DNA of 64,000 nt from Minisyncoccota bacterium. Lineage in GTDB: Bacteria; Patescibacteriota; Minisyncoccia; Phycocordibacterales; Phycocordibacteraceae. The notes beneath the pieces were generated by a model. The model did no database searches. It saw only the letters and a program-made list of their open reading frames with translations, and was not told the origin of the DNA. Location: contig DASPLI010000001.1 of the NCBI GenBank assembly GCA_035627655.1, positions 195,355-259,354 of the forward strand. Direction: 5' to 3'. The position numbers were made by a program, and so were the translations under genes. Shown one piece after another: positions 8,282-47,304 of this stretch. Every line of letters starts with the position of its first letter. Within the stretch, counting starts at the first letter, position 1.

Positions 8282-10539
8282 ATGCCGTAGAAGTTACGGA
8301 ACTTTGCCCGCTCACCATTACCAAGGTTACTCAAATGAGTCTCAAGTGCGCGGCGCCGTGGATCGCCCGGAGGCCTATTTGCAATTGATCGAACATGGTT
8401 AACCACTGTCTGTTTCGGTGGTCCCGTAATCTGATCTTGAACCGCAACTTGTACAAAGTCTGCTGGCTTAAGGCTCGGCAAGACATTCTGATGCGCAAGC
8501 GTTGACGCTGGAAGCTTAGCGCGTGAAGTGGGTGACATTTGTGCCAAGGTTGCAGCAGCTGCTTGTGGCGAGCCAAAGCGCCCACCCTGCTCAGTACCAG
8601 TTCGCAGATTCTTAAGTTTTTGTACGGTACCGCCGCCAAAGTCTGGGTGCTTGATGATTTCTGCAAATTGATCATCGCTGACCATATGCATGAGCTGGTT
8701 ACGTGTATCTGGCTTATCGAGCAGGCCAGCGCTGACAAGGTCTTCGACATCTTTCTCACGGATCGCTTTAGCATTACCGTCTCTGACCAGTCTCCTAATG
8801 CCGCCGTAGCGTTCCTTCTTCATGACTTCCTTCGCCGCCCCGTTCAGCTCCTTGTCTTCCATAAGACTCTTGAACTTCGACGACTTCATGAGAGTTGCGG
8901 CCTGCTTGAGATCGGACTCACTTGCCTTGCCGAGCGTTGCGCGCAGTTCGTCAGGCTTCATCTTGCGTAGTGCAACCTCAAGTTTGTCAGAATCACCGTC
9001 TCGAGCATCGCTAAAGGCCTTGCGAAGTTCAAGTCGGTTCTCAACTGACTCCATGCGCTCTCCGTGTTCGGCGCGACTTTCAGCACCCACGTTATCGCGG
9101 ATGTTCTGCCACAGGGTCTTCCCTTCCTGGGCCTTATCAAGGCGACGCATTTCTTCTCGGCGCGACTTGCTTTCCGCTGCACGCTTCGAGTAGCTGTCCA
9201 TGCCCGTACCTGGAACCGTAATATTCTGCGCACCCTGGAGCGTGCCGCGTATCGCGCTATCAACTGCGCTGCCGCCTGCCGCGCCAACCAAGAAGCGAAG
9301 CGGTGCCGGCGTAACTCGACGCCAGAAGCGGGACTGTTGGTTGTACACCTTGCCCATCGCATTTGCGCCAGCACCAAGCGGATAGAGCACCGGACTTGCT
9401 GAAGCGGTGCCGATAAACTTCATCGCGCGGCTTACAACGGCCTGTGAGCCAAAGAGACTTAGATAGTTTGCTGCCTGGAGCGCGGCAAGCATGAAACCGA
9501 CGGTGACGGCGAACATGACGAAGATAGAACCAACATTCGCATTGGTGTTGGTGAGCACCTGGAGAATGTTCTGGTCGCCGACGAAGCTGGCGCGAAGACC
9601 ATCGGAAATCTTGAGACCGATCAATATAAGAAGCACGAATACCGGCGCGAAAGCCGCGTTCTGTATCAGTTTCTTCCACCAGGTTTCAGAAAAGCCCTGA
9701 AGGCCTGGAATCGCCGCTCCGGCAAGGCCAATCGGTGACGTGATCATGAGCAGCATGAGCGCGATAGCGCGCGAGATGAGCATGATGGCGCCTGCGACCA
9801 GTACGCCGATCATGACGATCACGAACACGAGAAGCGCGAACGCAAGCACAATTCCCTTCATTTCTCGTCCTTGCAGCGCTCCGAAGAACTCAGCAACGCT
9901 CTGATCCCCGTTGAGCATTCCTGAAAGGCCGCTCGTTTGGAAAACTGCCGCCGCAATTCCCTGGTCCTGACAGGTCTCGGTGTTCGTTGAGTTTGAACAG
10001 TCGACATTCGTTGCCTGTTCGTAGACGGTTGAGCCGAGTGCGTTTGCAACATCGATAACCGCCTCTGCAGCAAAGAGGCTGAAGTTCAACAGCACCGCAA
10101 AGATGATGAGTGTTGGGAGTGTCCTGCCGGCATCATGCTTGTCGACGCGAAGAATGGTCTGAATGCCGATGTAGATGAAGCCAAAGAGGAGCGCCATGTT
10201 CGCAAGGTCGCGAAGAATGCCCCAGGCAAGCAAGAGGCCGCTTGAGTTGCCGAAGTAATCGGAAAAGCGGAAGACGGTGACATTCACCACCCAGTTGAAG
10301 AACATGCCGATCCAGCCCAAGAGGAAGTTGAATGCTTCGACAAACAACAGCAAAAGTCCCGCAACCAACCCGGCAAGTCCGGCCCCCAGAGCGTTCATGA
10401 TTTCCTGCCCTACGTCGATTGCGTGCGCAGCAGGAGAGAACGCCGTCATGCCGACGATAACAAAAAGAAGCAGCACTCCGCTCTTAAGGAGCGTGCCGCG
10501 CGCAAGGGAACGTTTCGCTATATGCCAAAGGGACTGCAT
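8278..10539 (-). CDS. VirB6/TrbL-like polytopic membrane protein with large hydrophilic C-terminal domain
   Basis: 753 aa. Signal/TM, then at least six TM helices in the first 370 aa, then a charged soluble domain. Size and topology are typical of VirB6-like proteins of Gram-positive and candidate-phyla T4SS. Confidence 0.5.
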   Translation of the reverse strand: MQSLWHIAKRSLARGTLLKSGVLLLFVIVGMTAFSPAAHAIDVGQEIMNALGAGLAGLVAGLLLLFVEAFNFLLGWIGMFFNWVVNVTVFRFSDYFGNSSGLLLAWGILRDLANMALLFGFIYIGIQTILRVDKHDAGRTLPTLIIFAVLLNFSLFAAEAVIDVANALGSTVYEQATNVDCSNSTNTETCQDQGIAAAVFQTSGLSGMLNGDQSVAEFFGALQGREMKGIVLAFALLVFVIVMIGVLVAGAIMLISRAIALMLLMITSPIGLAGAAIPGLQGFSETWWKKLIQNAAFAPVFVLLILIGLKISDGLRASFVGDQNILQVLTNTNANVGSIFVMFAVTVGFMLAALQAANYLSLFGSQAVVSRAMKFIGTASASPVLYPLGAGANAMGKVYNQQSRFWRRVTPAPLRFLVGAAGGSAVDSAIRGTLQGAQNITVPGTGMDSYSKRAAESKSRREEMRRLDKAQEGKTLWQNIRDNVGAESRAEHGERMESVENRLELRKAFSDARDGDSDKLEVALRKMKPDELRATLGKASESDLKQAATLMKSSKFKSLMEDKELNGAAKEVMKKERYGGIRRLVRDGNAKAIREKDVEDLVSAGLLDKPDTRNQLMHMVSDDQFAEIIKHPDFGGGTVQKLKNLRTGTEQGGRFGSPQAAAATLAQMSPTSRAKLPASTLAHQNVLPSLKPADFVQVAVQDQITGPPKQTVVNHVRSIANRPPGDPRRRALETHLSNLGNGERAKFRNFYGI

Positions 10540-11981
10540 TGTCGTTGTAGCTGGTTCATCTCCATGACCAGGCTTGGCGAAGCGCCATCGGTATCAAAGT
10601 CTCGGCTCTCGTTTGCCGCCTCCGCTATCTCCTGTCCTGTTGGGAGGGAGTTCGAAGCGACAAACTGTTCGTATTCCTGGAATCCGATTCGTATCTGTTC
10701 AGTTGCGTTTGGACCGGTCGTGCTCAACTTTGCTTTTATTTCATTCAACCGAGTGATCGCTGCCTGACCCTTTGCAATTCCCGCGTCCGCCCGCGCGATC
10801 GCGTCTGCAATCTTTGCGTCGCGTGCGGCGTCTGCGCTCCTGCGGTCGCACATTTCCTTTGCGGCAAGCGCTGCGGAACGGATGGTCTGCCAGTCGCTCA
10901 CAAACTCTTCCAGGCGATTGATCTGTCCATTGATAATGTTGATGGTATTGCTTGCGACACTGGTACCCTGTCCGGCATTTCCTCCCGTCGCGTCATCAAG
11001 TGGCGAGGTGCCGCTATTACCGGGGCGTGAGGTGCCGGCAAGACCACCGTCTTCAAACATCTGATTCATCAACTGAGTCAGAAGACCGACGAGCACTTCA
11101 TCAAGCTCGTCCGCGCTGATCAAGGATTCAATATCGGCTCCTGTCACCTCGGTAAGTCGGTCAATTGCGATCGAACCGAGCGTCGTTGTCTCACAATCGG
11201 CAGAGCCGCCAGGAGGAGACTGAGTCAACTCCGTCTCCCCTTCTCCTTCTGCAGCGCCGCCAGTAGCCGGCTCTTCTGGTTCCGAGCATGGCGAGAACAA
11301 GCCGCGCGACCAATCAAGCTGTGTGCGGCGCGAGTCCTCTGCCGATCCAACGCGCCTGCCAAGCTCGCTTTCCGTGGTTCGAAATGCACCGAAGAAGTTG
11401 TTTTGACTATCACCCCATGCCGCTACCCAAGCACGCAGTCCGCCGCGATCCTGTCCGAACCCCTGGGTCAGGAACGCTTCAGCATCAATTGCTGTCTCAT
11501 CAAGCGTAAAGCGGTTATTTATGAAGAATGAGTTTTGTGCCGTGCGGCGGCGGTAGCTATCGCGAATACTATCGATCAAACGGTCGCGAAACGGCGAGGT
11601 GATAGCGCCCTCCGCACCAAGTTCCCCGAGAAAGTCGTCAGCAACTTGATCTGCCAGTAGCTGGAGATCGCGTCGGAGGTTGGTCACGAATGCTGGAGAG
11701 CCGTCAAAGCCCGAATTCATCCAGTTGATGGTGGTCTTTGCGACTGATTCGATAGCCCGCTGCGCGGCCATGCGCGCAAGTGGGTCGAGCACGAACTCCT
11801 TTACCGTAATCTGCTCGTCAAAGATCGCAGAAAGCGTGTTTTGAATAGTGTTTGCAAAGTCGGCAACGGCCCACTGCGCCTTCGCTTCGCGCGGAGCAAG
11901 TGCGCTTCCTGAAAGAACGAGCACAGCAAGAACGAGCGTCGCGGCGATTTTTCGCACGATGCTGTTTGGGTTGTTGTGCAT
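10518..11981 (-). CDS. hypothetical secreted protein
   Basis: Signal peptide (LAVLVLSGSALAPREAKA). 487 aa with an acidic, coiled-coil-like C-terminal region. Confidence 0.45.
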   Translation of the reverse strand: MHNNPNSIVRKIAATLVLAVLVLSGSALAPREAKAQWAVADFANTIQNTLSAIFDEQITVKEFVLDPLARMAAQRAIESVAKTTINWMNSGFDGSPAFVTNLRRDLQLLADQVADDFLGELGAEGAITSPFRDRLIDSIRDSYRRRTAQNSFFINNRFTLDETAIDAEAFLTQGFGQDRGGLRAWVAAWGDSQNNFFGAFRTTESELGRRVGSAEDSRRTQLDWSRGLFSPCSEPEEPATGGAAEGEGETELTQSPPGGSADCETTTLGSIAIDRLTEVTGADIESLISADELDEVLVGLLTQLMNQMFEDGGLAGTSRPGNSGTSPLDDATGGNAGQGTSVASNTINIINGQINRLEEFVSDWQTIRSAALAAKEMCDRRSADAARDAKIADAIARADAGIAKGQAAITRLNEIKAKLSTTGPNATEQIRIGFQEYEQFVASNSLPTGQEIAEAANESRDFDTDGASPSLVMEMNQLQRQCSPFGI

Positions 11982-11983
11982 GG

Positions 11984-12979
11984 CTACTCAGGTAGAGCGG
12001 CTGTTCGCTCGATGATCACGTAGAACTGGTAGCCCGGTTCCCCTTCCTGTAGCTGAATGCCCGCAGCCTGCAAGCTCGGGTACAAGCCAGCAAATGCTGC
12101 TGCCATATCGCGGGTAGCTTCCGTATAGGCGTCAAAGCCCACGAAGCCGCGCAGCGGGTCGGTATCAAACGTACCCATGTCACCGATGGTTGCGCCAACC
12201 GTTGCAACGGCGTTTACCATTGCGAGATGTTCTGATGAGATGCTTTGCGGTACTGCAACGCGCGACAATGCAAGCGCAATACGCTCGTATGCCTTCGCGG
12301 ATGCACGCACAGCAGCAAGCGCCGCCGCATCGTCTTTCTGGACCGCATCGGCAAAACTGTAGAGTTCGCTTCGCGCGCCCATCAGCGAGTTGGCGTTGAT
12401 CGCCGCTTCTCCAGCAATCAGGTAAGTCGTGAGCGCCTCAGTGCTATCGGGCACAATCGTCAGTTCCTCGTCGGCATACAAAGCGGCACGGGTCGCCTCA
12501 AGATCGTCGATCGCTTCCTGAATAAAGGCGAGCATAGCCTCTTCGGTCGGCGCCTCCGGACCGCGAGACGTGAGATAGGAACCGAAGAAGTCGCGAGCGA
12601 ATCGACCGGTCATCGTTTCCGGCTTTGCGTCGACTCCCGGAAGATCAAAATCCGTAGAGGGTTCGGGTTTTTCAGATTCAAACCGCGGTTTTATCAACCC
12701 TGCCTCGACCGCTGCCTTGTCGGTCATGCTCGGATCAATAGAGTGCGGATTGCGAGGATCGGAACCGTAGAGGTCTTCCTGCCAGTCAGGGAGCAGGTCG
12801 GCATCGGTGTCTTTGGTTGCGTAGGCGCGAAGCAGCTCTTCCGTTGAGGTTGCACTTGCTGTTGGGAAGCGTGCCGTGCCGGAGAGAAAGAAGGCAGTGA
12901 TGATGCAGAAAGCCGCTATAGCGAGCGAAATAAGGATGCTGACTCTCCGGGTAGAAAACTGCATACTAGTCAAGGACAT
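11984..12979 (-). CDS. hypothetical membrane-anchored surface protein
   Basis: N-terminal TM (ILISLAIAAFCIITAFFL). Contains a motif DTDADLLPDWQEDLYGSDPRNPHSIDP resembling a calcium-binding TSP3/dockerin-like repeat. Confidence 0.45.
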   Translation of the reverse strand: MSLTSMQFSTRRVSILISLAIAAFCIITAFFLSGTARFPTASATSTEELLRAYATKDTDADLLPDWQEDLYGSDPRNPHSIDPSMTDKAAVEAGLIKPRFESEKPEPSTDFDLPGVDAKPETMTGRFARDFFGSYLTSRGPEAPTEEAMLAFIQEAIDDLEATRAALYADEELTIVPDSTEALTTYLIAGEAAINANSLMGARSELYSFADAVQKDDAAALAAVRASAKAYERIALALSRVAVPQSISSEHLAMVNAVATVGATIGDMGTFDTDPLRGFVGFDAYTEATRDMAAAFAGLYPSLQAAGIQLQEGEPGYQFYVIIERTAALPE

Positions 12980-30764: not shown

Positions 30765-31979
30765 CTAAATGCTTGAAGAGAGGGAGTAGATTGGCGAGAT
30801 CATGGAGATAGCGAACACGCCGACGAATGCGCCGATGATAAGCATGAGCATTGGCTCAATGACTGTTGAAAGATCCTTGGTTCCTTCCTCTACGTCTGTT
30901 TCGTAGTACTCGGCCACCTGTCCGAGCATGCCGGCCACCTGCCCCGTCTCTTCTCCCACGGCGATCATGTCGCCGACGAATACCGGATACAGCTTCGGGT
31001 GTTCGATGAATGCCGTTGATAGCGGCTCGCCTTTTTTCACGCGCACGCCTGCCTCCTGGACTACCTTGCCGAAGCGATTGTCTCCGACCACTTCTTCCGC
31101 AATAGCGATAGCGCTCAGCATTTCAACACCGGAAGACAGGAGCGAAGAAAGTGCGCGTGCAGCGCGTGCGCTGTACGTTTCTCGTACCAGGGTGCCGATG
31201 ACTGGGATGCGAAGCGCAACCGCAAGCACAATATTGCTCCCTACCTTAGAGCGCATAAATGCGATGATTGCGGCGACGGCAAGTATGAGAATCACGAACA
31301 CCAAAATCACATGGGAGGCCATAAAGTCCGAAATGTTTATGATCGTCTGCGTTGCTGTTGGAAGCGGCACCTGCAGATCCTTAAAGGTGGCGGCAAGCGT
31401 CGGAACGACGTAGATCATCATGAGAATGCCGATTACTACGACGGCAAACAGAATGATCGATGGGTAGATCATGGCGCCACGAATCTTCTTCTGCAGCGTA
31501 AAGGAGCGGTCCATCTGACGCGCAACCACGCGAAGCGCTTCGGCGAGCGTGCCGGACTCCTCGCCCGCTTTGGTCATAGCAATAAAGAGGCGCGAAAAGA
31601 CATTCTTATGAGCAGCAAGCGCTTCGCTAAATGCGTCCCCCTTCTTTACACGTGCTTCAAGGTCGGCGGTGACTTTCTTGAGTGCTTTATTAGTCGACTG
31701 TCGCTCGATCACAGAAAGCGCACGCGAGAGCGTGAGGCCTGCAGTGAGCATAGCCGCCAGGTTTTTGGTAAAGGTAATGCGTTCTTCCGTCTTGATGCCT
31801 GACGTAATGCTGATGTTGAGCAGGTTTGCAAACGGCAGTCCTCCCCCACCCTCTTCGATCGCGACCACAGTCGCGCTCTCCTTCTCAATCTCACTGTAGA
31901 TGGCAAAGCGTGAAGGAGCTTCCATCACGCGCTTTTCAACAGAACCGTCCTCTTTCTTGAGGGTGACGCGGAACTTCAT
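30765..31979 (-). CDS. pilC: type IV pilus assembly platform protein PilC (GspF family)
   Basis: Two GspF repeats (…LAAMLTAGLTLSRALSV… and …LSSLLSSGVEMLSAIAI…) and three TM segments. Confidence 0.85.
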   Translation of the reverse strand: MKFRVTLKKEDGSVEKRVMEAPSRFAIYSEIEKESATVVAIEEGGGGLPFANLLNISITSGIKTEERITFTKNLAAMLTAGLTLSRALSVIERQSTNKALKKVTADLEARVKKGDAFSEALAAHKNVFSRLFIAMTKAGEESGTLAEALRVVARQMDRSFTLQKKIRGAMIYPSIILFAVVVIGILMMIYVVPTLAATFKDLQVPLPTATQTIINISDFMASHVILVFVILILAVAAIIAFMRSKVGSNIVLAVALRIPVIGTLVRETYSARAARALSSLLSSGVEMLSAIAIAEEVVGDNRFGKVVQEAGVRVKKGEPLSTAFIEHPKLYPVFVGDMIAVGEETGQVAGMLGQVAEYYETDVEEGTKDLSTVIEPMLMLIIGAFVGVFAISMISPIYSLSSSI

Positions 31980-32036
31980 TTAATAGAAATACTAGCACGT
32001 GCGTGCTAGAGTCCGACGTAGAGAAAGGAGTGATTC

Positions 32037-32324
32037 ATGCTCACTAAGGATCGGTTACGGATTGATGATCCGGCAGCCTATAATCCGCGAAGGACTTGGT
32101 ACCGGTATCTGGTGACGTTTGACTTCACTGGTGATCGGCGCCCCTCGAAGTGGCTCGTTCGACTTCATAGCGGCTCGATTACGCTTGAGCGGTCGGCGAA
32201 AATCTCGCGGCCGGAAGACCTCGAACAGATCGCGCATGCGATAACCGAGCACTTTAAGAAGAAGGGCTTTCGATGGAATAATGCTCATCTCTTCATAAGC
32301 GCCTTCAGCCGCTTCGAAGACTGA
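32037..32324 (+). CDS. hypothetical small protein
   Basis: RBS AAAGGAG 8 nt upstream of the ATG. 95 aa, basic. Confidence 0.4.
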   Translation: MLTKDRLRIDDPAAYNPRRTWYRYLVTFDFTGDRRPSKWLVRLHSGSITLERSAKISRPEDLEQIAHAITEHFKKKGFRWNNAHLFISAFSRFED

Positions 32325-32462
32325 CTACATGCGCGCATCCAACGGGTGCGCGCATTCGTATTGACAAAAATAGCATTATGTGGCAGTCTATCCGATGGAT
32401 TATTGGGGACTCTATATCCCTTATAAGTCCATTTGTACCTCAACAACTGAGAGGAAATAGTA

Positions 32463-33341
32463 ATGGATAGCTCATCGCTTGGTGGCTTGGGCGGAAACCT
32501 TGCGTCGCTGGGAAGTCTCCTGGTGGCACTCGGCCCGTTCCTGCTCATCGCCATCGCCGCGCTTTTGGTTTCCGACGGCCTGCTCTCCCTCCGGGAGCGC
32601 GCGAGCCTGAAGAACGAAGTGCTGAAGGGCAACAACGCGATCGGTCTGCGCCGCCTCGGCCTCTTCTTGGGCCTCATGATCGGCTTCTCCGGTGTCATCA
32701 CCGGCGAAGGCACCGGTCAACTTTCGATCGACCTCGTGAACACGGCCATCTACGCCGCAGTGCTTGTCGCGCTGCTGCAGGTCGCGTTCTGGGTCAACGA
32801 CGTGCTCATCCTGCCCAAGGTGGCCAACTCAGCGGCGGTGCTTCAAGGCAACGCCGCGGTGGCAACCACCGAACTCGGCAGCATGGTCGCGACGGGTCTC
32901 ATCGCCAAGGCGGCGATCGAAGGCGGGAACGGCGGGGTCCTCCCCGTGCTCGTGTTCTTCGCTCTCGGCCAGATCGCGCTCGTCGTCATGACGAAGCTCT
33001 TCTCGGCAATCCATGCGAAAACGCGCTTGGTGTCCGAAATTGAATCGGGCAACCAGGCGGCGGCGATCGTCGTCGGCGCGAAACTGTGGGCCTACGGGCT
33101 CATCATGGCGACCGCGGCGGGCGGTGCGTTCAGCGGCTGGGGGGGCGACCTCCTTGCGTTCGGTCTGACCGCGCTTCTCGGCGTGATCTTCCTGTTCATC
33201 TCAAGCTGGGTGGTGGATTTCCTCCTCATCCGGTGGCACACGTTGCATGAGATCGTGACAGCGAAGAGCACCCCCTCGGCGCTCGTGTTCGCCGGCGGCC
33301 AGATCGGCTTGGCGTACGCCATCGCGACCTTGATCGTCTAA
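32463..33341 (+). CDS. DUF350 (YjfL-like) repeat membrane protein
   Basis: Repeated N-x-A-x-A/G...G-L/M-I-x-x motifs within TM hairpins (GNNAIGLRRLGLFLGLMIG, GNAAVATTELGSMVATGLIA, GNQAAAIVVGAKLWAYGLIM). Confidence 0.5.
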   Translation: MDSSSLGGLGGNLASLGSLLVALGPFLLIAIAALLVSDGLLSLRERASLKNEVLKGNNAIGLRRLGLFLGLMIGFSGVITGEGTGQLSIDLVNTAIYAAVLVALLQVAFWVNDVLILPKVANSAAVLQGNAAVATTELGSMVATGLIAKAAIEGGNGGVLPVLVFFALGQIALVVMTKLFSAIHAKTRLVSEIESGNQAAAIVVGAKLWAYGLIMATAAGGAFSGWGGDLLAFGLTALLGVIFLFISSWVVDFLLIRWHTLHEIVTAKSTPSALVFAGGQIGLAYAIATLIV

Positions 33342-33359
33342 CGGCACTCACCTGCCATC

Positions 33360-33393
33360 AACGCCCCGGGACTTCGGTTCCGGGGCGTTTTGC
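33360..33393 (+). terminator. rho-independent terminator
   Basis: AACGCCCCGGgacttcggttCCGGGGCGTTttgcat. Confidence 0.55.
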
Positions 33394-33493
33394 ATAGTTG
33401 ACTTTTCGACCGATACATGCTATACTGTCCAAAGCCCAGTCTACCGGGCGTTGTGGCAGTTTGTGCTGCTACGCAACAGAAGGAGAAAGCACC

Positions 33494-33898
33494 TTGAAAA
33501 GGGATTTTAGGTTGCAGCTCATGGGAGCTGTCGCTGTCGCGATTCTCGCATCTGCGTGTTCTGAACCGCAGCCTCGCGGCTTCGCAACTGATCAGCCGAC
33601 GCGTATGTGCGTTGATGATCGGGGCATGCGGCAGGATGAAAGTCGGTGCGCGACGCGTGCCGGCTACGTCAATCCCTACTACTGGTACTACGTCGGCCGC
33701 GGCGGCTACGTGCCGCCCGTCGGTTATGCGGTGCGCGGCGGCACACGTCAGCCGCTCGCCGCAACGAACTACCAATCCGCAGCTACGGCTGAACGCGCCG
33801 CGATCGCTCGCGGTGGCTTCGGCGCCAGTGCGTCGCGGAATACCACGGTGAGCCGCGGTGGCTTCGGCGGCTCGTCTCGCGCTTCGGCGGGAGGCTAA
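33494..33898 (+). CDS. lipoprotein, YjfM/DUF1190-like (TTG start)
   Basis: RBS AAGGAG 8 nt upstream of TTG. Lipobox ILASAC. Cys pair (MCVDD…RCATRAG) and Gly-rich C-terminus NTTVSRGGFGGSSRASAGG, which I recall as resembling the E. coli YjfM C-terminus. Confidence 0.45.
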   Translation: MKRDFRLQLMGAVAVAILASACSEPQPRGFATDQPTRMCVDDRGMRQDESRCATRAGYVNPYYWYYVGRGGYVPPVGYAVRGGTRQPLAATNYQSAATAERAAIARGGFGASASRNTTVSRGGFGGSSRASAGG

Positions 33899-33901
33899 CC
33901 A

Positions 33902-35053
33902 ATGGAGCGCCTCTTGATCACACCGCGCGCCAACTGGCAGGAAAAGGTCGAACGACTCGGCCTGATCTGGCACACGGCGCAAGGACAACCCTACTGGAAC
34001 GAATCGGCCTACTATCGCTTCTCAGCGGAGCAGGTCGATGAAATCGAACGGGCGACGGAGGCGCTTTACCAGCTCTTCGTTGCTGCCGGTGATCGGATCG
34101 TCAATGACGACGATCTGCTCACTCGGCGCTTCGGGATCCCGAAGTTCGCTATTCCCCTGATCAAGCGTGCCTGGGATGAGGAGCCTCCGGCTCTGAATTT
34201 CGGCCGCTTCGATCTTGGGTACAACGGACGGAACCCGCCGAAACTGTTCGAATTCAACTGCGACACACCGACGTCTCTGTTTGAGGCGGCGGTGGTCCAG
34301 TGGGATTTCAAAGAGGACCGCTTCCCCGGCGATGACCAATTCACGAGCTTGCACGACAAGCTCGTGGACAAGTGGCGGGACGTCAAACCCCACTTGAAGT
34401 CGAACCTCGTGCACTTTGTGCACGTGGACGACGCCGCCGGCGAAGACACGCTCACGACGACCTACCATCGCGACTTGGCCCAACAAGCCGGGCTCGAGAC
34501 GGAAGGGCTCTTCATTGAGCAAGTCGGGTGGGACAAAAACCGGCGCCGGTTTGTCGACCTCTATGGTCGGCCGATCGATGTCCTGTTCCACCTCTATCCG
34601 TGGGAATGGTTGATTCACGACGACTTCGGCGAACACATCGTCGAATGCTACGACCAGATGCAGTGGATCGAACCGATCTGGAAGATGATGTGGTCGAACA
34701 AGGCCATATTGCCTATCCTGTGGGAAATGAACCCCGGGCATCCGAACCTGCTGCCGTCCTATTTCGACCGACCCGCGTCTGGCGATTACGTTGAAAAACC
34801 CATTCTCGCAAGAGAAGGGGCCAACGTGACTATCGTCAGCAACGGCGTCGAAGTCGCAAAGACCGACGGTGACTACGGCGAGGAAGGCTTCATCTATCAA
34901 CAGCTCTACAACCTGCCGGACTTCGATGGAAACTATCCCATCATCGGCAGCTGGGTGGTTGAAGGATGGGCTGCCGGTATGGGTATCCGCGAAGGCGGAC
35001 TCATCACCGGCAACACCGGACGCTTCGTCCCGCACGTGTTCACCCCTGCATAA
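33902..35053 (+). CDS. glutathionylspermidine-synthase-like ATP-grasp amidoligase (YjfC/YgiC family)
   Basis: Length about 383 aa. KPILAREGANV matches the K-P-x-x-x-R-E-G-x-G-V motif of the GSP-synthetase family. Conserved acidic and aromatic stretches throughout. Confidence 0.65.
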   Translation: MERLLITPRANWQEKVERLGLIWHTAQGQPYWNESAYYRFSAEQVDEIERATEALYQLFVAAGDRIVNDDDLLTRRFGIPKFAIPLIKRAWDEEPPALNFGRFDLGYNGRNPPKLFEFNCDTPTSLFEAAVVQWDFKEDRFPGDDQFTSLHDKLVDKWRDVKPHLKSNLVHFVHVDDAAGEDTLTTTYHRDLAQQAGLETEGLFIEQVGWDKNRRRFVDLYGRPIDVLFHLYPWEWLIHDDFGEHIVECYDQMQWIEPIWKMMWSNKAILPILWEMNPGHPNLLPSYFDRPASGDYVEKPILAREGANVTIVSNGVEVAKTDGDYGEEGFIYQQLYNLPDFDGNYPIIGSWVVEGWAAGMGIREGGLITGNTGRFVPHVFTPA

Positions 35054-35068
35054 CCTAAACGACCTCAA

Positions 35069-35105
35069 CGGCCTGGAGCGCAAGCTCCGGGCCGTTTTGT
35101 ATTTA
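35069..35105 (+). terminator. rho-independent terminator
   Basis: ACGGCCTGGAGCgcaaGCTCCGGGCCGTtttgtattt. Confidence 0.6.
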
Positions 35106-35146
35106 CTCAGGTATTAAAAAGAAAGACCGCGCCCGAAAGCGCGGTC
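35105..35146 (-). terminator. rho-independent terminator for the K+ channel gene
   Basis: On the minus strand GACCGCGCtttcggGCGCGGTC is followed by tttctttttaa. Confidence 0.55.
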
Positions 35147-35167
35147 AGTCATTTGGTTTGAAGTGCG

Positions 35168-36283
35168 TTACGCCGCAACCGCGGCGTGGAGCTCTTGCTC
35201 CTCCTGGGGCGACAGATCATGCTCAGCGATATAGAGCAGACCGTCACCCGCAGATACCAGAGTCGTCGGCGGCGGGTTCAGTTTGGTAACGTCGCCGCGG
35301 CCGTTCTTCTGCGAGATGCCAAGCAAGATTGCCGTCCCGCCGAATCGACGATCGAAACATTGTTTGATGTCTTCGAACGACTTGGCTGGGGCGTTTTCCG
35401 GACGACGAAGCGAGAAGAATGAGTTCCCGCCCGGTTCCAGAAGTTCAACAATCGCCGACGCCGTTCCTGGGTCCGCCATTTCCCGCGTGGCCACCAGGGC
35501 CTGCATGGGAGTGATGATGCTCAGTTCGAGCGCGCAGTCCGGAACGAGCTCCGCACTTTCCTGCTCGCGCAGGAGAAGCACGACGCGCGCTGTTGGCCGG
35601 AACTGGCTCAGCAAGCAGATGATCCCGATTGCTCGGGCGTCTTCTACAGCCGAAACGTAGATTTGGCTGGCGCGGGTCGCGCCGGCGTCCTCGATCGTCT
35701 TGCGGTTGATGCCGCCTTCGGCTGCTTGGACGTACTCCGGGAGCACTCCGTGGTAATCGCTCGCCCGCGTGAACGGGTTGCGATCGCCAGTATTGGAGAA
35801 GCAACCGACAACCGTCGGCAGCGTATCCCAGTGGTCGTCTTGCCGTTCCTTGACCGCGTTTGCAATCAGCGCACGCGTTTGGAACGGATGATAGTCGCCG
35901 AGCACGAGGATGTGCCCGGTTGCATCAGTTGGCATGAGGCCCTTCCTCCGTTTTTCAATGAAATCAGTGACTGCTGCGATGACCTTGCCGAGTATGAGCG
36001 TAATGAGCCCGACACCGGTGGCCATGATGATGGGTGCGATCAGTCGCGCGGCGTCTGACTGCGGGGAGAGATCCCCATAGCCAATCGTCAGCGACGTCGT
36101 CCACCAGTAATACCAGTAGTTAGCTGGTTTGATCAGATTCGAGTCCGGCGCTTCCGTCAGTGCATAGACCCACCACGACAAGGCGTAGTGGAGCACCACC
36201 GCAAGCAGCAAGAATCGCCAATCGATAAGCAGCAGCTTCCTGACTTTTGCCAAACCAAGGAAAAGCCGGGACAAGATAGGCAC
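35168..36283 (-). CDS. Kch-like potassium channel with RCK/TrkA-N domain
   Basis: Selectivity filter TTSLTIGYGD after a pore helix. Rossmann GHILVLGDYHP (RCK), and a second RCK-like half. Confidence 0.8.
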   Translation of the reverse strand: MPILSRLFLGLAKVRKLLLIDWRFLLLAVVLHYALSWWVYALTEAPDSNLIKPANYWYYWWTTSLTIGYGDLSPQSDAARLIAPIIMATGVGLITLILGKVIAAVTDFIEKRRKGLMPTDATGHILVLGDYHPFQTRALIANAVKERQDDHWDTLPTVVGCFSNTGDRNPFTRASDYHGVLPEYVQAAEGGINRKTIEDAGATRASQIYVSAVEDARAIGIICLLSQFRPTARVVLLLREQESAELVPDCALELSIITPMQALVATREMADPGTASAIVELLEPGGNSFFSLRRPENAPAKSFEDIKQCFDRRFGGTAILLGISQKNGRGDVTKLNPPPTTLVSAGDGLLYIAEHDLSPQEEQELHAAVAA

Positions 36284-36352
36284 GCAAACCTCCTTTCAGT
36301 TGGTACGTGAGTCCGGTACTATTATACTATATATGAAGGTATAAGTCAATGC

Positions 36353-38095
36353 TTATTCGCTCACCGCGCGTAGCACTTCTTCAAGCGAGGTCATACCCTT
36401 TGCCGCCTTATAAATACCGTCCTCAAGCATGGTGAGCATGCCCTCGTTTCGTGCCTGCTCTTCGATCTGTTCGGAGGTTGCGTTTTTCATAATGAGATCG
36501 CGCGTTGCTGAAGAGACAGACAAAATTTCGTGGATGCCGATACGGCTCTTGTATCCAGCGTCATTGTCACCGCCCTTGGGGCGATAAAACGGAATGTCAT
36601 CCAACTTTCCTTTGACCACCTTTTCGTCCGTGAGTGCCTTGAATGCAGCTTCAAAGTTTCTTGTCGGAGCAATCTTCTCTCGCTCCGTCTTTGAGAGTGT
36701 GTACGCCTCCTTTCCGTCAGTGAGTCGACGCACCAGGCGTTGTCCGACCACGATGCGAAGCGTAGACACAAGCAGGAATGGTTCGACGCCCATATCAATA
36801 AGACGCGGAATTGCGCCGGCGGCGGAGTTGGTATGGATGGTCGAGAGCACCAAGTGGCCGGTCAGTGCCGCATTGATTGCAAGTGATGCTGTTTCTCCGT
36901 CGCGAATTTCTCCCACCATGATGATGTCCGGGTCCTGACGCACAAGGGAGCGTAGTCCTGACGCGAAGGTAAAGCCGATGGTCGGATTTACCTGCGTCTG
37001 GTTGATGCGCTTCATCTGGTATTCGATCGGATCTTCAACAGTCGAGATGTTGACGTCCGGCGTATTCAAAATATCGAGAATGGTGTAGAGCGTGGTGGTC
37101 TTACCGGAGCCGGTCGGACCAGAGACAAGAATAAGACCAGTGGTTGCCTTCGTTGCTTTGTGGATGCGTTCCAGCCCCTCGCCGTGGAAGCCAAGCGCCT
37201 CGAGGGTGAAGCCTTCTCCGGTCTCGCGAAGCAGGCGCATGACGATCTTCTCGCCGAAATAGGTCGGCAGAAGCGATACGCGGAAAGACACCTTCTCCCC
37301 TTCCGTTTCCATCTTGAAGCGTCCGTCTTGCGGCAGACGCTTCTCGTCGAGCTTAAGGTTTGCGAGCACCTTGAGGCGCGCAGTAATACCCGGAGCTGCA
37401 ACCTTCGGCAAGGTCATTGCGTCATGGAGGATGCCGTCGATGCGGTAGCGCACAAGTACTTCTGCTTCTGCCGGCTCGATGTGAATGTCGGATGCGCCCT
37501 GCGTGATGGCGTGGCGAAGCAGAGTATCGACGATCTTTACGATCGGAAGATCTTCCGCCATCTTCTTGAGGTCTTCGCCGGACGTCTCGTCTCCCGTGTT
37601 TTCTTTTACCAACGACAGCTTCCCCGCTTCGGTACCGATAATGTCGCCGAATTCTTCTTTGAGGGATTTCTGATACTGCAAAAGCGCGTTCTTGATGGAC
37701 TCTTCGTCCGTCAGGCGCGGCATGATCTTGAGCCCGGTCTTCTTTCTGACCGAGTCGATGGATGGTAGGTCCTCCGTATCAAGCATGGCTACCTCAAGGC
37801 AGTCGCTACCGCGTCTGAAGGCAATGATGCTGTGCGTGCGTGCGATTGGTTCGGGAATAAGGGAGAGCACCTCAAGCGGGATCTTCTCGTCTTTGAGGTT
37901 CACAAATGGAATACCAAGCACGTATGCCTTGATGCGGCGGAGCGCATCTGGAGAAATAAGGCCCTGCGCAAGCAGCACGTCTCCGATGGACTGCTTCTTT
38001 TCCTGCGCTTCAACCTCTGCCGCTTCCACATCTTTGCGGGAGACGACGCCCGAGTCGAGGATGAATGCCTTCAAATCTTTCTCTGAGACTTTCAT
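36353..38095 (-). CDS. pilB: type IV pilus assembly ATPase PilB (GspE family)
   Basis: N-terminal GspE_N-like domain. Walker A LVSGPTGSGKTTTLY, Asp box, Walker B and His box. Zn tetracysteine absent. Confidence 0.85.
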   Translation of the reverse strand: MKVSEKDLKAFILDSGVVSRKDVEAAEVEAQEKKQSIGDVLLAQGLISPDALRRIKAYVLGIPFVNLKDEKIPLEVLSLIPEPIARTHSIIAFRRGSDCLEVAMLDTEDLPSIDSVRKKTGLKIMPRLTDEESIKNALLQYQKSLKEEFGDIIGTEAGKLSLVKENTGDETSGEDLKKMAEDLPIVKIVDTLLRHAITQGASDIHIEPAEAEVLVRYRIDGILHDAMTLPKVAAPGITARLKVLANLKLDEKRLPQDGRFKMETEGEKVSFRVSLLPTYFGEKIVMRLLRETGEGFTLEALGFHGEGLERIHKATKATTGLILVSGPTGSGKTTTLYTILDILNTPDVNISTVEDPIEYQMKRINQTQVNPTIGFTFASGLRSLVRQDPDIIMVGEIRDGETASLAINAALTGHLVLSTIHTNSAAGAIPRLIDMGVEPFLLVSTLRIVVGQRLVRRLTDGKEAYTLSKTEREKIAPTRNFEAAFKALTDEKVVKGKLDDIPFYRPKGGDNDAGYKSRIGIHEILSVSSATRDLIMKNATSEQIEEQARNEGMLTMLEDGIYKAAKGMTSLEEVLRAVSE

Positions 38096-41708: not shown

Positions 41709-42320
41709 TTAGCGTACAAACGACTTGCGTCGCAGCAGCTGTCGCAGTTTATCCGGCTCGCCCGTCCCCCGCTTCCGCTTGGTCGGCTGGTAGCAGAGAC
41801 GTGCGTGATCCGCGCAGTAAGGACCATGCGTCTGGCCGCGTCCACAAAACGCGAAGTCCTTCTGGTCAGGATCACCGATTGGAAACTTGCACATCGATTC
41901 GTTGATCGTCAGCACGCTTGCCGGCGCCCCGTCTTCAAACCGCACTGGTTCGAGTTCTGGAATCACGGCTGGTGTTGGCGGTCGTTCGATGTAGGTTCGT
42001 GGCTGCACGCGACGCGCGGCGACAGCTGAACGGTTTGCGCGCGGACGCGCTGGCCGTACGATGTTGTTCGCCTTGAACTTCGCGAGCACTTCGGCACCGT
42101 CTGCGTATCGATCTTTGATTACTTTCGATAGGCGCGGACGATGCAGGGCTCCAAGGACCACGCTTCGCGTGATTTCCTTGAAGCGGTCGCTTGAGGGACG
42201 AAACTTTCGGTCGAGCTGTCGTGCGACAGCGCTCGCGGATGAACATGCTTTCGCCGCTTGATAGAAAGCTTCGATGCAGTCATCTCGTTTGGCGTCCCAG
42301 CGAGGTAGCACTGTTTCCAT
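41709..42320 (-). CDS. GcrA-like cell-cycle-regulator-family protein
   Basis: N-terminal W-x-x-x-R…-S-A-S-x-V/I-A segment (WDAKRDDCIEAFYQAAKACSSASAVARQL…GALHR) and C-terminal CKFPIGDPDQKDFAFCGRGQTHGPYCADHARLCYQP, matching the conserved GcrA C-terminal Cys motif. Confidence 0.55.
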   Translation of the reverse strand: METVLPRWDAKRDDCIEAFYQAAKACSSASAVARQLDRKFRPSSDRFKEITRSVVLGALHRPRLSKVIKDRYADGAEVLAKFKANNIVRPARPRANRSAVAARRVQPRTYIERPPTPAVIPELEPVRFEDGAPASVLTINESMCKFPIGDPDQKDFAFCGRGQTHGPYCADHARLCYQPTKRKRGTGEPDKLRQLLRRKSFVR

Positions 42321-42534
42321 ATCTACTCCCCTATGTAATGTGCTCCTACCCATAGATATACTCCTACACCACGCTCTCGTCTATCGGGATAATACTTCGC
42401 TACGCATACAAAATAAGTCAATGTGCTATACTCCGCCCATCGGCAACGACTGCACGTCCTGTAACGACTGAACTGCCGCCGATATTCCTTCGTCATACGT
42501 GCGCTTAATAACCGGTGCGTTGTAGTGAACAAGT

Positions 42535-44837: not shown

Positions 44838-45578
44838 ATGAAACCGTTTCAAGGCTCTACGCAAGAATGCTTCGCGCATTTTGCCGAGCAGCTTGCAAGT
44901 GACTACGAATACCATCGGAAACGAAAGGTGTTCGCCGCTACCGTGCACGTTACCGACGGCACCGTCCAGCGTTGGTTTTCCCAAAACGGGTTACCCATGG
45001 GCGAGGCACTCGTGCGTGTCCGGTACTACCTCGACTTCCTCGGCTACGCTGTTGCTGAGGTACAAGAACTGCCAGAGGCGATCCGCACCGTGGGTCACCT
45101 GATTACGTTCGACGTCCTTTCGGTTGCTGATGTGGCCGGTTCTACCGGTTACGAAGGCGTGCCGAAAAACAATGTCGACCAGGTGATCGCCGTTTTGTGC
45201 GGTCGTCGCGGCGTCTCGGAAGAAAAGTTCGCGCTTTACAGCGAGCTTGCTCGCGTCAACCGGAAACGGCTGACGCAACGGCAGCAGGCAGTTGAAAAAG
45301 TCGTGAGCTTCGAACAGGGACACTGCCCTACGGAACCGGAGTCATTTCCGACCGCGAGGCCTGAGAGCGATTCGCACCGCAAGGTGATCATCGAATCGTT
45401 CGTTCACTCGGTGGAAGCAATTCTGCCGCTCGCCGAAGACGTGTTGTCTGATGGCTTCACCGCCGCGGACCGCGCGAAGGTGCGAGATTTGGTTGGGAGC
45501 GGCATTTCCCGTCTCTCCAACCTGCTCACCCAATTGACGAGCGAGGGTGCGAGAAACACCCTCAAGAAACAGCAGTAG
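44838..45578 (+). CDS. hypothetical protein with two XRE-like HTH-like segments
   Basis: Segments ATVHVTDGTVQRWFSQNGLPMGEALVRVRYYL and DVLSVADVAGSTGYEGVPKNNVDQVIAVL fit an HTH_3-like pattern. The next gene starts 11 nt after its stop. Confidence 0.45.
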   Translation: MKPFQGSTQECFAHFAEQLASDYEYHRKRKVFAATVHVTDGTVQRWFSQNGLPMGEALVRVRYYLDFLGYAVAEVQELPEAIRTVGHLITFDVLSVADVAGSTGYEGVPKNNVDQVIAVLCGRRGVSEEKFALYSELARVNRKRLTQRQQAVEKVVSFEQGHCPTEPESFPTARPESDSHRKVIIESFVHSVEAILPLAEDVLSDGFTAADRAKVRDLVGSGISRLSNLLTQLTSEGARNTLKKQQ

Positions 45579-45591
45579 AAAGGTGTCCGCT

Positions 45592-47304
45592 ATGCCTAGC
45601 GCACAATCCGCGGTTCGTACGAGCCGCAGCGAGGTGGGCTTCCATCACGGAAAGACCCTCCTCAAAGTCGCCAACACGTACCCGTCCCTCTTTGAGGCGG
45701 TGCTCGAAGCCGTGCAAAACGCGATCGATTCTGAAGCCACGAAAATTGGCATCATTATCAATCGCAAGACGCGGTCGATCAGCATCATCGACAACGGGAA
45801 CGGTGTGACGCGCGAGCAACTCGACGAAGCGCTCGCCAGCGTCGGCAGTACACTCAAGCAGCGCGACAAGCTTGGCCAATTTGGCTATGGCCTCATTTCC
45901 TCCTTAGGGAAGTGTGAGTCCATGTCGTTCACCTCGTGCCCCGCAGGGGGCGACGAGTACCTTGAGTGGACGTTTGACACCGCGAAGATCGCCAACCAAG
46001 TTCGTGCGATCAAAATTCCGGTTGCGAAACGTAATTTCGTCTACCGCCCGAACCGTGACGGCCCACCCCTTCCACGGGGTTGGCATGCCACGGAATGGCG
46101 GACGCGGGTCTCGATCAACAATTACGTGACGGACCGCAAGATCTCCGAAATCCGGAGCGCCGATGCCCTCAAGGAGGCCATCGTCGAGAAGTTCGGCATC
46201 CCAATGCGGCGGAACGATGTGTCCGTCAGCGTCGACATCACGAACGAGAACGGCTCGCGGGAGACAGCGGTCGGGAAGGCAAAGCTCTTCTCCGGCAAGA
46301 AGCTCCCTGAAGTCGTCATCTCGGATAAGGATGCTGGTAACACCATCTTCCGGCTCTATCTCGCCAAGCCCGGCCGTCAAGGCAAGGTCTTGGTCGGGGT
46401 GGTCGGCGACGACTACCGCTTCGCGTTCGGCGTCTTCGCTAAGGAGGCGTCGGAACTTCTCTCGACGAACATCATCGAACTGTTCGTTAAGGAAGGCATC
46501 TTCGAGGGCGAGATTCTCACGACCAATGGGAAGCTCCACGACTCGAGGAAGAAGCTTGAGCAGAACGACGCCTATGTGGGCTTCTGCGCCACGATTGAGG
46601 AATGGTTCCTCAAGCATGGCAAGAAGCACCTCAAGGAGGTCAAGGACGAACGGCAGGGCCAGCGCATTCAGGACCTGTCGCTCAAGAGCCTTGAGAACGT
46701 GCAGAGCGTGCTCTCGGACGACGCGTTCGACCATCTTCGTAAGGGGACGATCGACACCTTCCGGTACGGCACTGTCGGCGCTGGGCATACCAATCCCGAA
46801 GATCGCAAGATCGTCGGGACACAGGAAAACCCGTCACTGTCGACCGTCGCTAGCGCGCGCAAGCGCGGTGAAGGCGGCGAAAGCCACGGGAACGAGCCTC
46901 CGGAGCGTGAACACGCCGGCCATATTCCCTTCACTGCTGCTGGCCCTCGCGGTCAGCAGCGGCGGGTGGTAAAGGGCGGCTCGCGCGGGCTTCAGTTCGA
47001 TCACACGGCAATGCGGTCCGATGGACCGCTCGCCGTGCTCGATGCTGGTAACGGCATTATCTTCTTCAACGTTGAGCACCCGGCCTGGGTAGCGGCGTCT
47101 GAAGCGGGTGACCGTGAGCTCATGCAGCTGCAGGAAGTCGGCGCCCTCGTTTCCCTCGTGCGTCACACGATGCCCGAGGAATACCATGGGTATCTCGACC
47201 TCTACCTGACCGACCTTCTTGGTCCGCTGTCGTTCCTCTTGCGCAACTCCCCCTCCTTCAGCTCCTCGGCTCGCACGAAGGCGAGCAAGGAAAAGAAGGA
47301 GTAG
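45592..47304 (+). CDS. Hsp90/MORC-like GHKL (HATPase_c_3-type) ATPase
   Basis: Bergerat-fold motifs: N-box LEAVQNAIDS, G1 box IIDNGNGV, G2 box LGQFGYGLISSLG. The roughly 400-aa C-terminal region has no recognisable domain. Confidence 0.6.
   Translation: MPSAQSAVRTSRSEVGFHHGKTLLKVANTYPSLFEAVLEAVQNAIDSEATKIGIIINRKTRSISIIDNGNGVTREQLDEALASVGSTLKQRDKLGQFGYGLISSLGKCESMSFTSCPAGGDEYLEWTFDTAKIANQVRAIKIPVAKRNFVYRPNRDGPPLPRGWHATEWRTRVSINNYVTDRKISEIRSADALKEAIVEKFGIPMRRNDVSVSVDITNENGSRETAVGKAKLFSGKKLPEVVISDKDAGNTIFRLYLAKPGRQGKVLVGVVGDDYRFAFGVFAKEASELLSTNIIELFVKEGIFEGEILTTNGKLHDSRKKLEQNDAYVGFCATIEEWFLKHGKKHLKEVKDERQGQRIQDLSLKSLENVQSVLSDDAFDHLRKGTIDTFRYGTVGAGHTNPEDRKIVGTQENPSLSTVASARKRGEGGESHGNEPPEREHAGHIPFTAAGPRGQQRRVVKGGSRGLQFDHTAMRSDGPLAVLDAGNGIIFFNVEHPAWVAASEAGDRELMQLQEVGALVSLVRHTMPEEYHGYLDLYLTDLLGPLSFLLRNSPSFSSSARTKASKEKKE

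Follow-up and report, generated by a model that had tools for sequence, protein, structure and literature searches.

Three groups of CesT/Tir-PspA operons have been described, one of which contains a spermine-synthase-like gene fused to seven transmembrane (7TM) segments together with genes for an 8TM DUF350 protein, a lipoprotein, and DUF4178, and another of which contains a GspS-related ATP-grasp peptide ligase (Ravi et al., 2024, mSystems, PMC11237479). The same study reports an operon class that includes a K+ channel, PspA-less variants, which contain DUF2617, and spermine-synthase variants, and it sets an "8TM YjfL family" type of DUF350 protein apart from the 4TM type (Ravi et al., 2024, PMC11237479). 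These systems were proposed to couple polyamine levels or polyamine modification with membrane dynamics; Patescibacteria and the Candidate Phyla Radiation (CPR) are not mentioned in that paper (Ravi et al., 2024, PMC11237479). The present analysis concerns a related set of genes in a 64-kb stretch of contig DASPLI010000001.1 (hereafter the window) from a CPR bacterium (Patescibacteria, Candidatus Paceibacterota), whose genome has a guanine-plus-cytosine (GC) content of ~55%. Genes for a DUF350 protein, a lipoprotein, a GspS-like ligase, and a K+ channel lie within 3.8 kb of one another between the type IV pilus genes pilC and pilB. This block is probably a horizontally acquired, PspA-less, mosaic version of the known envelope-stress and polyamine module composed of DUF350 protein, lipoprotein, GspS-like ligase, and ligand-gated K+ channel.

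Gene content and the closest described operons

A first-pass annotation of this DNA, made from the sequence alone, had named a DUF350-repeat membrane protein, a lipoprotein resembling YjfM/DUF1190, and a glutathionylspermidine-synthase-like ATP-grasp ligase, in the order of E. coli yjfL-yjfM-yjfC and followed by a potassium channel. Every open reading frame (ORF) that it named is present where it had been placed. Profile searches assign the DUF350 and GSP_synth families, as proposed, and do not assign DUF1190. The gene order does parallel that of E. coli, but the likeness to a yjfL-yjfM-yjfC cassette goes no further for two of the products, since the DUF350 protein is not YjfL-like and the ligase is nearer to YgiC.

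The DUF350 protein scores 107.5 bits against a cut-off of 26, with matches in two stretches, the better of which covers profile positions 5–131 of 133 (Table 1). It consists of two domains with 8TM, whereas the YjfL type has a single domain, 4TM, and ~130 amino acids. Against a gammaproteobacterial YjfL-type protein (from locus L092; labels beginning with L denote comparison contigs or genomes and those beginning with P comparison proteins), the BLASTP E-value is 0.018, and a YjfL-like identity was rejected on this ground together with the orthologue-like match to the 8TM type. This match is to the counterpart in a CPR spermine-synthase operon (L006), to which the window protein is 47% identical over its full length (E 5e-81); the double-DUF350 proteins of such operons have 285–309 amino acids. 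Among JGI metagenomes, closer DUF350 relatives were not found (best ≤38% identity), nor was a donor cassette. The operons in question (L006 and L009), of the order DUF4178-DUF2617-~540-amino-acid protein-DUF350(8TM)-spermine synthase, correspond to the second group of Ravi et al. and its PspA-less variants, and they share with the window the orthologue-like DUF350 protein and a member of the same CPR channel clade (45–46% identity), convergent with the end of the operon. They differ in that their enzyme is a 7TM-fused spermine/spermidine-synthase-like protein, where the window has a lipoprotein and an ATP-grasp ligase, and in that DUF4178, DUF2617, and the ~540-amino-acid protein are absent from the window block.

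The ligase matches PF03738 over profile positions 1–371 of 371 (475.7 bits against a cut-off of 29.3). Among proteins of known structure, its best match is YgiC (7uk8, E 4e-98), followed by YjfC (7uk6, E 8e-78) and GspS (E 5e-34), and the bifunctional GspS and trypanothione synthetase are far weaker matches (E ~1e-34); its identity is 44% to E. coli YgiC and 40% to YjfC. It is a stand-alone synthetase that lacks the CHAP amidase domain found at the N-terminus of bifunctional GspS, and it covers only residues 224–448 of the GspS model NF007801 (163 bits against a cut-off of 882). In an identity-based neighbour-joining tree, which carries no support values, the window ligase forms a small clade with those of Parcubacteria C7867-001 and P0007. 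This clade is nested, at ~60% identity, among sequences from high-GC Gram-negative contigs (L005, 72% GC) and from Alphaproteobacteria (Sphingomonas, Brevundimonas, and Caulobacteraceae), with E. coli YgiC as the nearest outgroup and YjfC beyond it. For E. coli YgiC and YjfC, in vitro peptide-spermidine ligase activity has been reported (Pederick et al., 2023, as cited in PMC11762307 and PMC12568646), and the RefSeq name of both proteins is "peptide--spermidine ligase". By homology to these enzymes, the window ligase would catalyze an ATP-dependent joining of spermidine to a peptide carboxylate. The first-pass annotation had called the substrate of such ligases unknown, which no longer describes the in vitro activity, as summarized in PMC11762307.

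The lipoprotein most likely starts at the TTG at 33494 and not at the TTG at 33398 assumed earlier, because an AAGGAG Shine-Dalgarno sequence upstream, the N-termini of homologues, and the metagenome gene call agree on it; a lipoprotein initiated at TTG thus stands, with a different start. From TTG 33494, its N-terminus begins MKRDFRLQLMGAVAVAILASAC and its C-terminus reads ...VSRGGFGGSSRASAGG, and its stop lies 3 nucleotides (nt) ahead of the ligase ATG. The protein has 179 representative homologues at E≤1e-3 in an exhaustive HMMER search. Family features are a nearly invariant lipobox cysteine (Cys22), invariant C39 and C52, a WYY segment, and a C-terminal (V/I)(S/A)RGGFG motif, which in the window protein reads RGGFG and is followed by a Gly/Ser tail ending in GG. 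A lipobox-like motif is present in 124 of 143 family representatives, RGG[FVYL][GS] followed by a Gly/Ser tail of ~11 residues in 130 of the 143 (P0133–P0282), and a tail ending in G-[G/E/S/A] in 113. The C-terminus is GG in each of the four DUF1190 proteins examined (including those at L090:12388-13026 and L094:3745-4416). The lipoprotein gene adjoins that for the ligase in the window, L002, L005, L095, and L096, and the product is 41% identical to its ligase-adjacent equivalent in Parcubacteria C7867-001.

The resemblance of the Gly-rich C-terminus to YjfM/DUF1190 noted earlier holds for the RGGFG motif in the tail, and no match reaches the gathering score. Against DUF1190 (PF06693), the window protein obtains 12.9–13.8 bits (E 0.07–0.14; gathering score 22), over profile positions 114–155 only; at E≤0.01 the profile matches none of 73 family members. 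An hhalign comparison of the 73-sequence family with only four DUF1190 proteins (YjfM, YgiB, and two others) gave 46% probability and E 2e-4 over 19 columns, all within the C-terminal tVsRGGFG motif. Position, lipoprotein nature, cysteine content, and tail motif mark the protein as a candidate YgiB/YjfM-like partner of the ligase, which is distinct from a demonstrated DUF1190 protein. The tail also resembles the Gly carboxylate acted on by GspS-type enzymes, and this conserved C-terminus stands beside the gene for a carboxylate-amine ligase.

Two known operon types resemble the lipoprotein-ligase pair and its surroundings. As in tolC-ygiB-ygiC, a small Cys-containing lipoprotein gene is tightly coupled to, and directly upstream of, a stand-alone GSP_synth ligase gene, the ligase is most similar to YgiC, and the two lipoproteins have in common the C-terminal tVsRGGFG and a Gly-rich tail with GG at its end. 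The window lipoprotein has 134 amino acids compared with 223 in YgiB, however, and outside the tail it is not alignable to DUF1190; moreover, the window adds the 8TM DUF350 protein and the K+ channel and lacks an outer-membrane channel partner. CPR bacteria are, to our knowledge, regarded as having no outer membrane. In the high-GC Gram-negative contig L005 (72% GC; 9632-12514), a lipoprotein-ligase pair adjoins a gene for a TolC-like outer-membrane factor (OEP), echoing tolC-ygiB-ygiC. With the channel-containing PspA-polyamine operon of the yjfIJKLMC type (the third group of Ravi et al.; L092 and L093), the window shares four partner families, among them a K+ channel with a cytoplasmic ligand-sensing domain, and the order DUF350-lipoprotein-ligase. 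It differs from this type in its CPR host, in the 8TM double-domain DUF350 protein in place of the 4TM YjfL type, in a ligase that is YgiC-like rather than YjfC-like, and in a channel gene that is convergent, on the opposite strand, and provided with its own promoter-like site instead of lying inside the operon.

The K+ channel and its genomic contexts

The pore of the channel matches Ion_trans_2 with 46.7 bits against a cut-off of 22.5, and its TIGYGD filter corresponds to residues 66–71, of which G68, G70, and D71 are invariant in the channel family. An AlphaFold model built with 12 family members (mean pLDDT 81.6) has a first transmembrane helix, a pore helix, the TIGYGD filter, a second transmembrane helix, and then a Rossmann-like beta/alpha domain, and on the strength of this model the assignment as a K+ channel with an RCK domain is right. 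The RCK-fold domain is too divergent for a Pfam TrkA_N match, and none was obtained. The earlier name of Kch/RCK channel is therefore correct as to the TIGYGD filter and the RCK fold, but the architecture is that of MthK, with two transmembrane helices, and not that of E. coli Kch, with six. The protein further differs from MthK/Kch-type RCK channels in that its RCK similarity lies below Pfam detection, in that the dinucleotide motif GxGxxG is missing (HILVLGDYHP), and in that the family has motifs of its own, namely VVGCFxNTGDRNPF and an invariant DPG. Conduction of K+ with ligand-dependent gating is the putative function of the channel.

Relatives of the channel were sought by a word-indexed search of 5.8 billion protein clusters, in which relatives sharing no exact words can be missed; it returned no more than 11 close clusters (40–51% identity) and one distant cluster (23%), and within these limits the channel family is a rare one. 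In Parcubacteria C7867-001 (L002), a channel gene (49%) stands divergent from genes for the lipoprotein (41%) and the ligase (67%), between dus and serS, and the same layout is found in L096 (L096:230-3097). Two further CPR-type contexts (L006 and L009) are the spermine-synthase operons described above; L007 and L008 have the same upstream synteny, and their contigs end just past the channel. The distant relative (P0132) is encoded inside a gammaproteobacterial operon of the order DUF2170-PspA-channel-DUF2491-DUF350-DUF1190-GSP_synth (L092 and L093), which in L092 is flanked by rlmB and aidB; the E. coli operon yjfIJKLMC, which has no channel gene, occupies the same position. The window channel and that of the L092 operon align over their full length at 23% identity (pairwise E 2e-23). 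Every informative context places the channel family beside polyamine or DUF350 genes. The synteny of the channel with yjfC-like genes across genomes, suggested at first pass as a check, is thus seen in L002, L096, L092, and L093, whereas the accompanying statement that the link to an ion channel was undescribed is incorrect, because it is already contained in Ravi et al. (2024) and a distant homologue lies inside the gammaproteobacterial yjf operon. In the literature searched, no further paper on the channel link was found.

The converse association fails, since many ligase loci are without the channel, among them L005, L091, L095, and the peat contigs L099–L118. In several of the latter (L099–L104, L106, L108–L110, L112, and L118), the ligase gene (~47%) lies directly upstream of an 8TM DUF350 gene (~35%), and neither the channel nor the lipoprotein was found in these contigs by tblastn. 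Both GSP_synth-DUF350 and spermine-synthase-DUF350 pairings are seen in JGI metagenomes. In L097 (4532-6128), the channel protein is identical to that of L096 and only a remnant of the lipoprotein gene is present; this remnant is followed by phage baseplate genes (Baseplate_J and Mu Gp48-like), which suggests replacement by a prophage or tailocin. In the 26% GC contig L115 (526-5563), a weak K+-channel-like match stands beside a DUF4178-DUF2617-~540-amino-acid protein-DUF350 operon, and the channel association may therefore not be confined to the family that the word-indexed search recovered.

Insertion between pilC and pilB

In the window, ~4.35 kb separates pilC from pilB. For comparison, species representatives in GTDB were scanned with pilB, which gave ~30 Patescibacteria loci at 59–80% pilB identity, and the insert genes were sought at these loci by tblastn with the window proteins. 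Most of the ~30 relatives have adjoining pilB and pilC genes, ~3–190 base pairs (bp) apart, within the shared order PPase-NusA-pilB-pilC-p492-p196-p481-TIM, and none of the four insert genes was detected by tblastn at any of these loci. DNA homology to the relatives ends at the stop codon of pilB and ~24 nt upstream of pilC; on this left side, homology with L040 extends through pilC to ~32003. These end points, the abutting pilB and pilC genes, and the presence of other cargo in relatives together identify the block as an insertion spanning ~32004–36352. The expectation voiced at first pass that pilC and pilB, ~4.3 kb apart here, would normally be adjacent is thus borne out, and horizontal acquisition of the intervening block is supported both by this arrangement in most relatives and by the foreign composition described below.

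Within this Paceibacteria lineage, the content of the pilB-pilC junction varies, and accessory DNA has entered it repeatedly. Larger gaps are present in five relatives (L012, L017, L020, L028, and L040), and in L030 pilC lies ~8 kb off, past further pilB-like genes. In L040, the closest relative (pilB 80% and pilC 72% identical), the junction holds a different cargo of 8.2 kb (L040:11750-19929) with two TrmB regulators, two methyltransferases, a transketolase-like protein, and an NMT1-type ABC transporter. Similarly, the junction contains an IS200-like Y1 transposase in L020 (3858-4553), a SocA/Panacea antitoxin-like gene in L028 (4003-4539), and a 132-amino-acid ORF without family assignment in L012 (3869-4267).

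Base composition of the block

The GC content at third codon positions (GC3) is 0.85 in the DUF350 gene, the highest value in the window, 0.635 in the lipoprotein gene (166-amino-acid ORF), 0.747 in the ligase gene, and 0.707 in the channel gene, compared with a mean of 0.605 (standard deviation 0.058) in the other 48 window genes. With a mean of 0.745, the four-gene block exceeds all other runs of four adjacent genes (50 runs in total), the highest value in a run that does not overlap it being 0.665, and its mean was reached by only 41 of 100,000 random sets of four genes. Synonymous-codon heterogeneity is 161 per 1000 codons in the block and has a median of 45 and a maximum of 114 in the other runs. 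The excess of G/C-ending codons first noticed by eye is therefore confirmed by computation of GC3 and codon usage against the other window genes. The GC3 of the lipoprotein gene is not in itself unusual, its high GC stemming from Gly, Ala, and Arg codons (GC2 0.63). GC3-rich islands are also formed by the channel gene and its neighbours in L002 and L006.

Transcriptional organization and accompanying features

Promoters and terminators were called by consensus pattern scans only. In these scans, the DUF350 gene appears as a unit of its own, with a terminator-like hairpin at 33360–33389, and a promoter-like site precedes the lipoprotein-ligase pair (Table 1). Between the convergent ligase and channel genes, the ligase-side hairpin (plus strand, 35067–35096) has a 13-bp stem and the channel-side hairpin (minus strand, 35146–35125) a 9-bp stem, each with a T-rich tail. 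Downstream of its promoter-like site, the channel gene has a GAAAGGAGG ribosome-binding site and starts with GTG. Taken together with the 8TM DUF350 protein and the YgiC-nearer ligase, this organization indicates a mosaic of separate transcription units rather than the transfer of an intact yjfLMC operon.

At the left edge of the inserted DNA, the palindrome at 31992–32009 scores as a terminator-like hairpin on the minus strand and could be an operator or a terminator. The coordinate at which the first-pass annotation began its block, 32037, is the start of orf95, which went unmentioned there. A hairpin follows orf95 at 32329–32355; its product has no Pfam, NCBIfam, or PADLOC match, and a search of the DNA between pilB and pilC in relatives gave no homologue even with the threshold relaxed to E≤10. 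None of the five insert proteins was matched in PADLOC, and a defence-system reading of the block, to which a variable hot spot might have pointed, was rejected on this result.

Elsewhere in the window, two genes are also outliers in GC3, one encoding a 585-amino-acid HATPase_c_3 protein (45547–47304, plus strand, GC3 0.758) and the other a 607-amino-acid protein without a Pfam match (61018–62841, minus strand, GC3 0.781), and these, too, may be of foreign origin. A GcrA-family protein (PF07750, E 8e-24) is encoded at 41709–42353 on the minus strand with a host-like GC3 of 0.586; GcrA is an alphaproteobacterial cell-cycle regulator.

Table 1. Features at the pilC-pilB junction of the window (positions are those of the 64-kb stretch).
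Feature	Position	Strand	Evidence and remarks
pilC (T2SSF-type pilus platform protein)	30765–31979	-	Intact, left flank; Pfam T2SSF E 2e-54, NCBIfam PilC/GspF
Perfect 18-nt palindrome, CTAGCACGTGCGTGCTAG	31992–32009		Between the pilC start codon and orf95; left edge of inserted DNA; read from the sequence
orf95 (95 amino acids)	32037–32324	+	Strong AAGGAG ribosome-binding site; GC3 0.615, host-like; gene call in source assembly
DUF350 double-domain 8TM membrane protein (292 amino acids)	32463–33341	+	PF03994 E 7e-31, two stretches
Promoter-like site TTGACT-17 nt-TG-TATACT	33398–33426	+	Ahead of the lipoprotein-ligase pair; 10 of 12 positions, extended -10 TG
Lipoprotein, TTG start (134 amino acids)	33494–33898	+	Signal peptide, lipobox ILASAC
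ATP-grasp acid-amine ligase, GSP_synth family, YgiC/YjfC type (383 amino acids)	33902–35053	+	PF03738 E 1.4e-142
Two back-to-back intrinsic-terminator-like hairpins	35067–35146		Between the convergent ligase and channel genes
K+ channel, 2TM/P-loop, TIGYGD filter, C-terminal RCK-fold domain	35168–36283	-	Ion_trans_2 E 3e-12; AlphaFold model
Promoter-like site TTGACT-17 nt-TATAAT of the channel gene	36321–36349	-	In the 69-nt gap after the pilB stop; 11 of 12 positions
pilB (type IV pilus assembly ATPase)	36353–38095	-	Intact, right flank; T2SSE E 7e-123 and MshEN; TIGR02538 E 2e-160

Origin of the block and alternative explanations

The closest relatives of the channel and the DUF350 protein are found in CPR-like contigs and those of the ligase outside its small clade in Gram-negative bacteria, and the block looks like a mosaic, assembled before or after its arrival at the junction. 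It is possible, if rather doubtful, that assembly took place in situ, with a CPR-native pair of channel and 8TM DUF350 genes present first and a lipoprotein-ligase pair from a high-GC Gram-negative donor later displacing a spermine synthase and the genes upstream of it. The DUF350 protein, 47% identical to those of L006 and L009 and unlike YjfL, agrees with such a history, as do the position of the window ligase pair, which corresponds to the DUF350-spermine synthase end in L006 and L009 and is likewise convergent with the channel, the occurrence of lipoprotein and ligase under their own promoter-like site and as a bare two-gene unit in L005, L091, and L095, and the high-GC Gram-negative origin of the nearest non-CPR ligase relatives. 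The flanks are wholly different, however, with pilus genes in the window and an M23 peptidase, HhH-GPD, and DUF3467 in L006 and L009, so that the channel-DUF350 pair must also have moved; the GC3 of all four genes exceeds that of the host; the DUF350-ligase pairing in the unrelated peat contigs (L099–L118) is compatible with a donor cassette that was assembled beforehand; and no intermediate arrangement was found among the genomes examined. A resident origin is very unlikely. According to this explanation, the raised GC3 reflects gene-specific constraints (membrane-protein composition, high expression, or biased gene conversion) on an old set of genes lost from the relatives, for which it can be said that two of the four genes encode membrane proteins, that the GC3 of the lipoprotein gene is ordinary, and that a few other window genes (at 45547–47304 and 61018–62841) have a high GC3 as well. 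It would require many independent and precise losses, as none of the ~30 relatives has any of the four genes here and most have pilB and pilC abutting. Constraint on membrane proteins also fits poorly with the GC3 of 0.747 in the gene for the soluble ligase and with pilC, likewise a polytopic membrane protein, whose GC3 is 0.637, and it leaves aside a synonymous-codon heterogeneity above that of every other four-gene run and the fact that homologous blocks stand out as GC3-rich islands, in other surroundings, in two further CPR genomes.

The location of the block between pilB and pilC also raises the idea that the module serves the type IV pilus, for example by adjusting K+ or the membrane potential to the needs of pilus assembly or DNA uptake, or by polyamine modification of pilins, so that its position would be adaptive. 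Because pilB is followed directly, on the same strand, by the channel gene, read-through co-transcription would be conceivable. This idea is nevertheless extremely improbable, and a functional pilus link was rejected because it is not seen at any other locus: no other examined member of the channel family or the ligase clade adjoins pilus genes, relatives hold unrelated cargo or mobile genes at the junction, and the channel gene has its own promoter-like site, with terminator-like hairpins isolating the block. The pilus link looks incidental, because the same junction carries unrelated cargo in relatives.

Acquisition of a mosaic, PspA-less module from outside thus remains the probable account of the block, and several results weigh against it. 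Searches for flanking direct repeats, for a nearby tRNA, and for an integrase or transposase in the block were negative, the repeats around it being short and at chance level only. The pattern scans suggest that the four genes form at least three transcription units and not one operon. DUF2170/CesT-like, PspA, and DUF2491 genes are absent from the block and the flanking genes, the rest of the 64-kb window not having been scanned for them. DUF1190 membership of the lipoprotein is not demonstrable by Pfam searches with the protein and with 73 family members or by hhalign, in which the C-terminal motif alone matches. Finally, the channel-polyamine linkage could partly result from co-transfer as a mobile unit among CPR genomes and not from function; the GC3-rich islands in L002 and L006 indicate that co-mobility may contribute to it.

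Functional implications

If the products act together, a cytoplasmic ligase of the YgiC type would use ATP to join a polyamine, for example spermidine, to a peptide carboxylate, and this reaction would either change the pool of free polyamine or produce a peptidyl-polyamine. The extracytoplasmic Cys-bearing lipoprotein and the 8TM DUF350 protein would form a membrane or surface arm with a role in sensing or transport, and the RCK-gated channel would adjust K+ flux, and thereby membrane potential and cation balance, through a cytoplasmic ligand tied to the chemistry of the ligase. Functional coupling between the module and the channel is suggested by their conserved neighbourhood. Since spermine-synthase-like and ligase enzymes are interchangeable beside the channel-DUF350 pair, polyamine status may be the common currency.

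A bolder proposal, and an unlikely one, is that the CPR RCK channel, the 8TM DUF350 protein, and the interchangeable polyamine enzymes constitute one mobile "cation-homeostasis" unit, in which the channel would be gated by the polyamine or peptidyl-polyamine of the neighbouring enzyme and the tail of the lipoprotein would be the peptide substrate of the ligase or a mimic of it, that is, a case of protein C-terminal polyamination. The exported location of the lipoprotein argues against its tail being the ligase substrate. If true, this proposal would for the first time assign a physiological substrate to ligases of the YgiC/YjfC type and a polyamine-linked ligand to a prokaryotic RCK channel.

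Both the gene families with their co-occurrence and the K+ channel partner have been described before, and the locus is no new kind of system. The features of main remaining interest are the tight linkage between channel and polyamine genes and the conserved C-terminal tail of the lipoprotein. The channel link, which previously consisted of one sentence in a comparative-genomics paper, is strengthened independently by three CPR genome contexts and a gammaproteobacterial yjf operon. The enzyme beside the pair of channel and 8TM DUF350 protein varies, which suggests that the channel is coupled to polyamine chemistry and not to any single enzyme. In the window, a bacterium with a reduced genome (contig ~0.74 Mb) has acquired and kept such a module at a recombination-prone junction inside its pilus operon.

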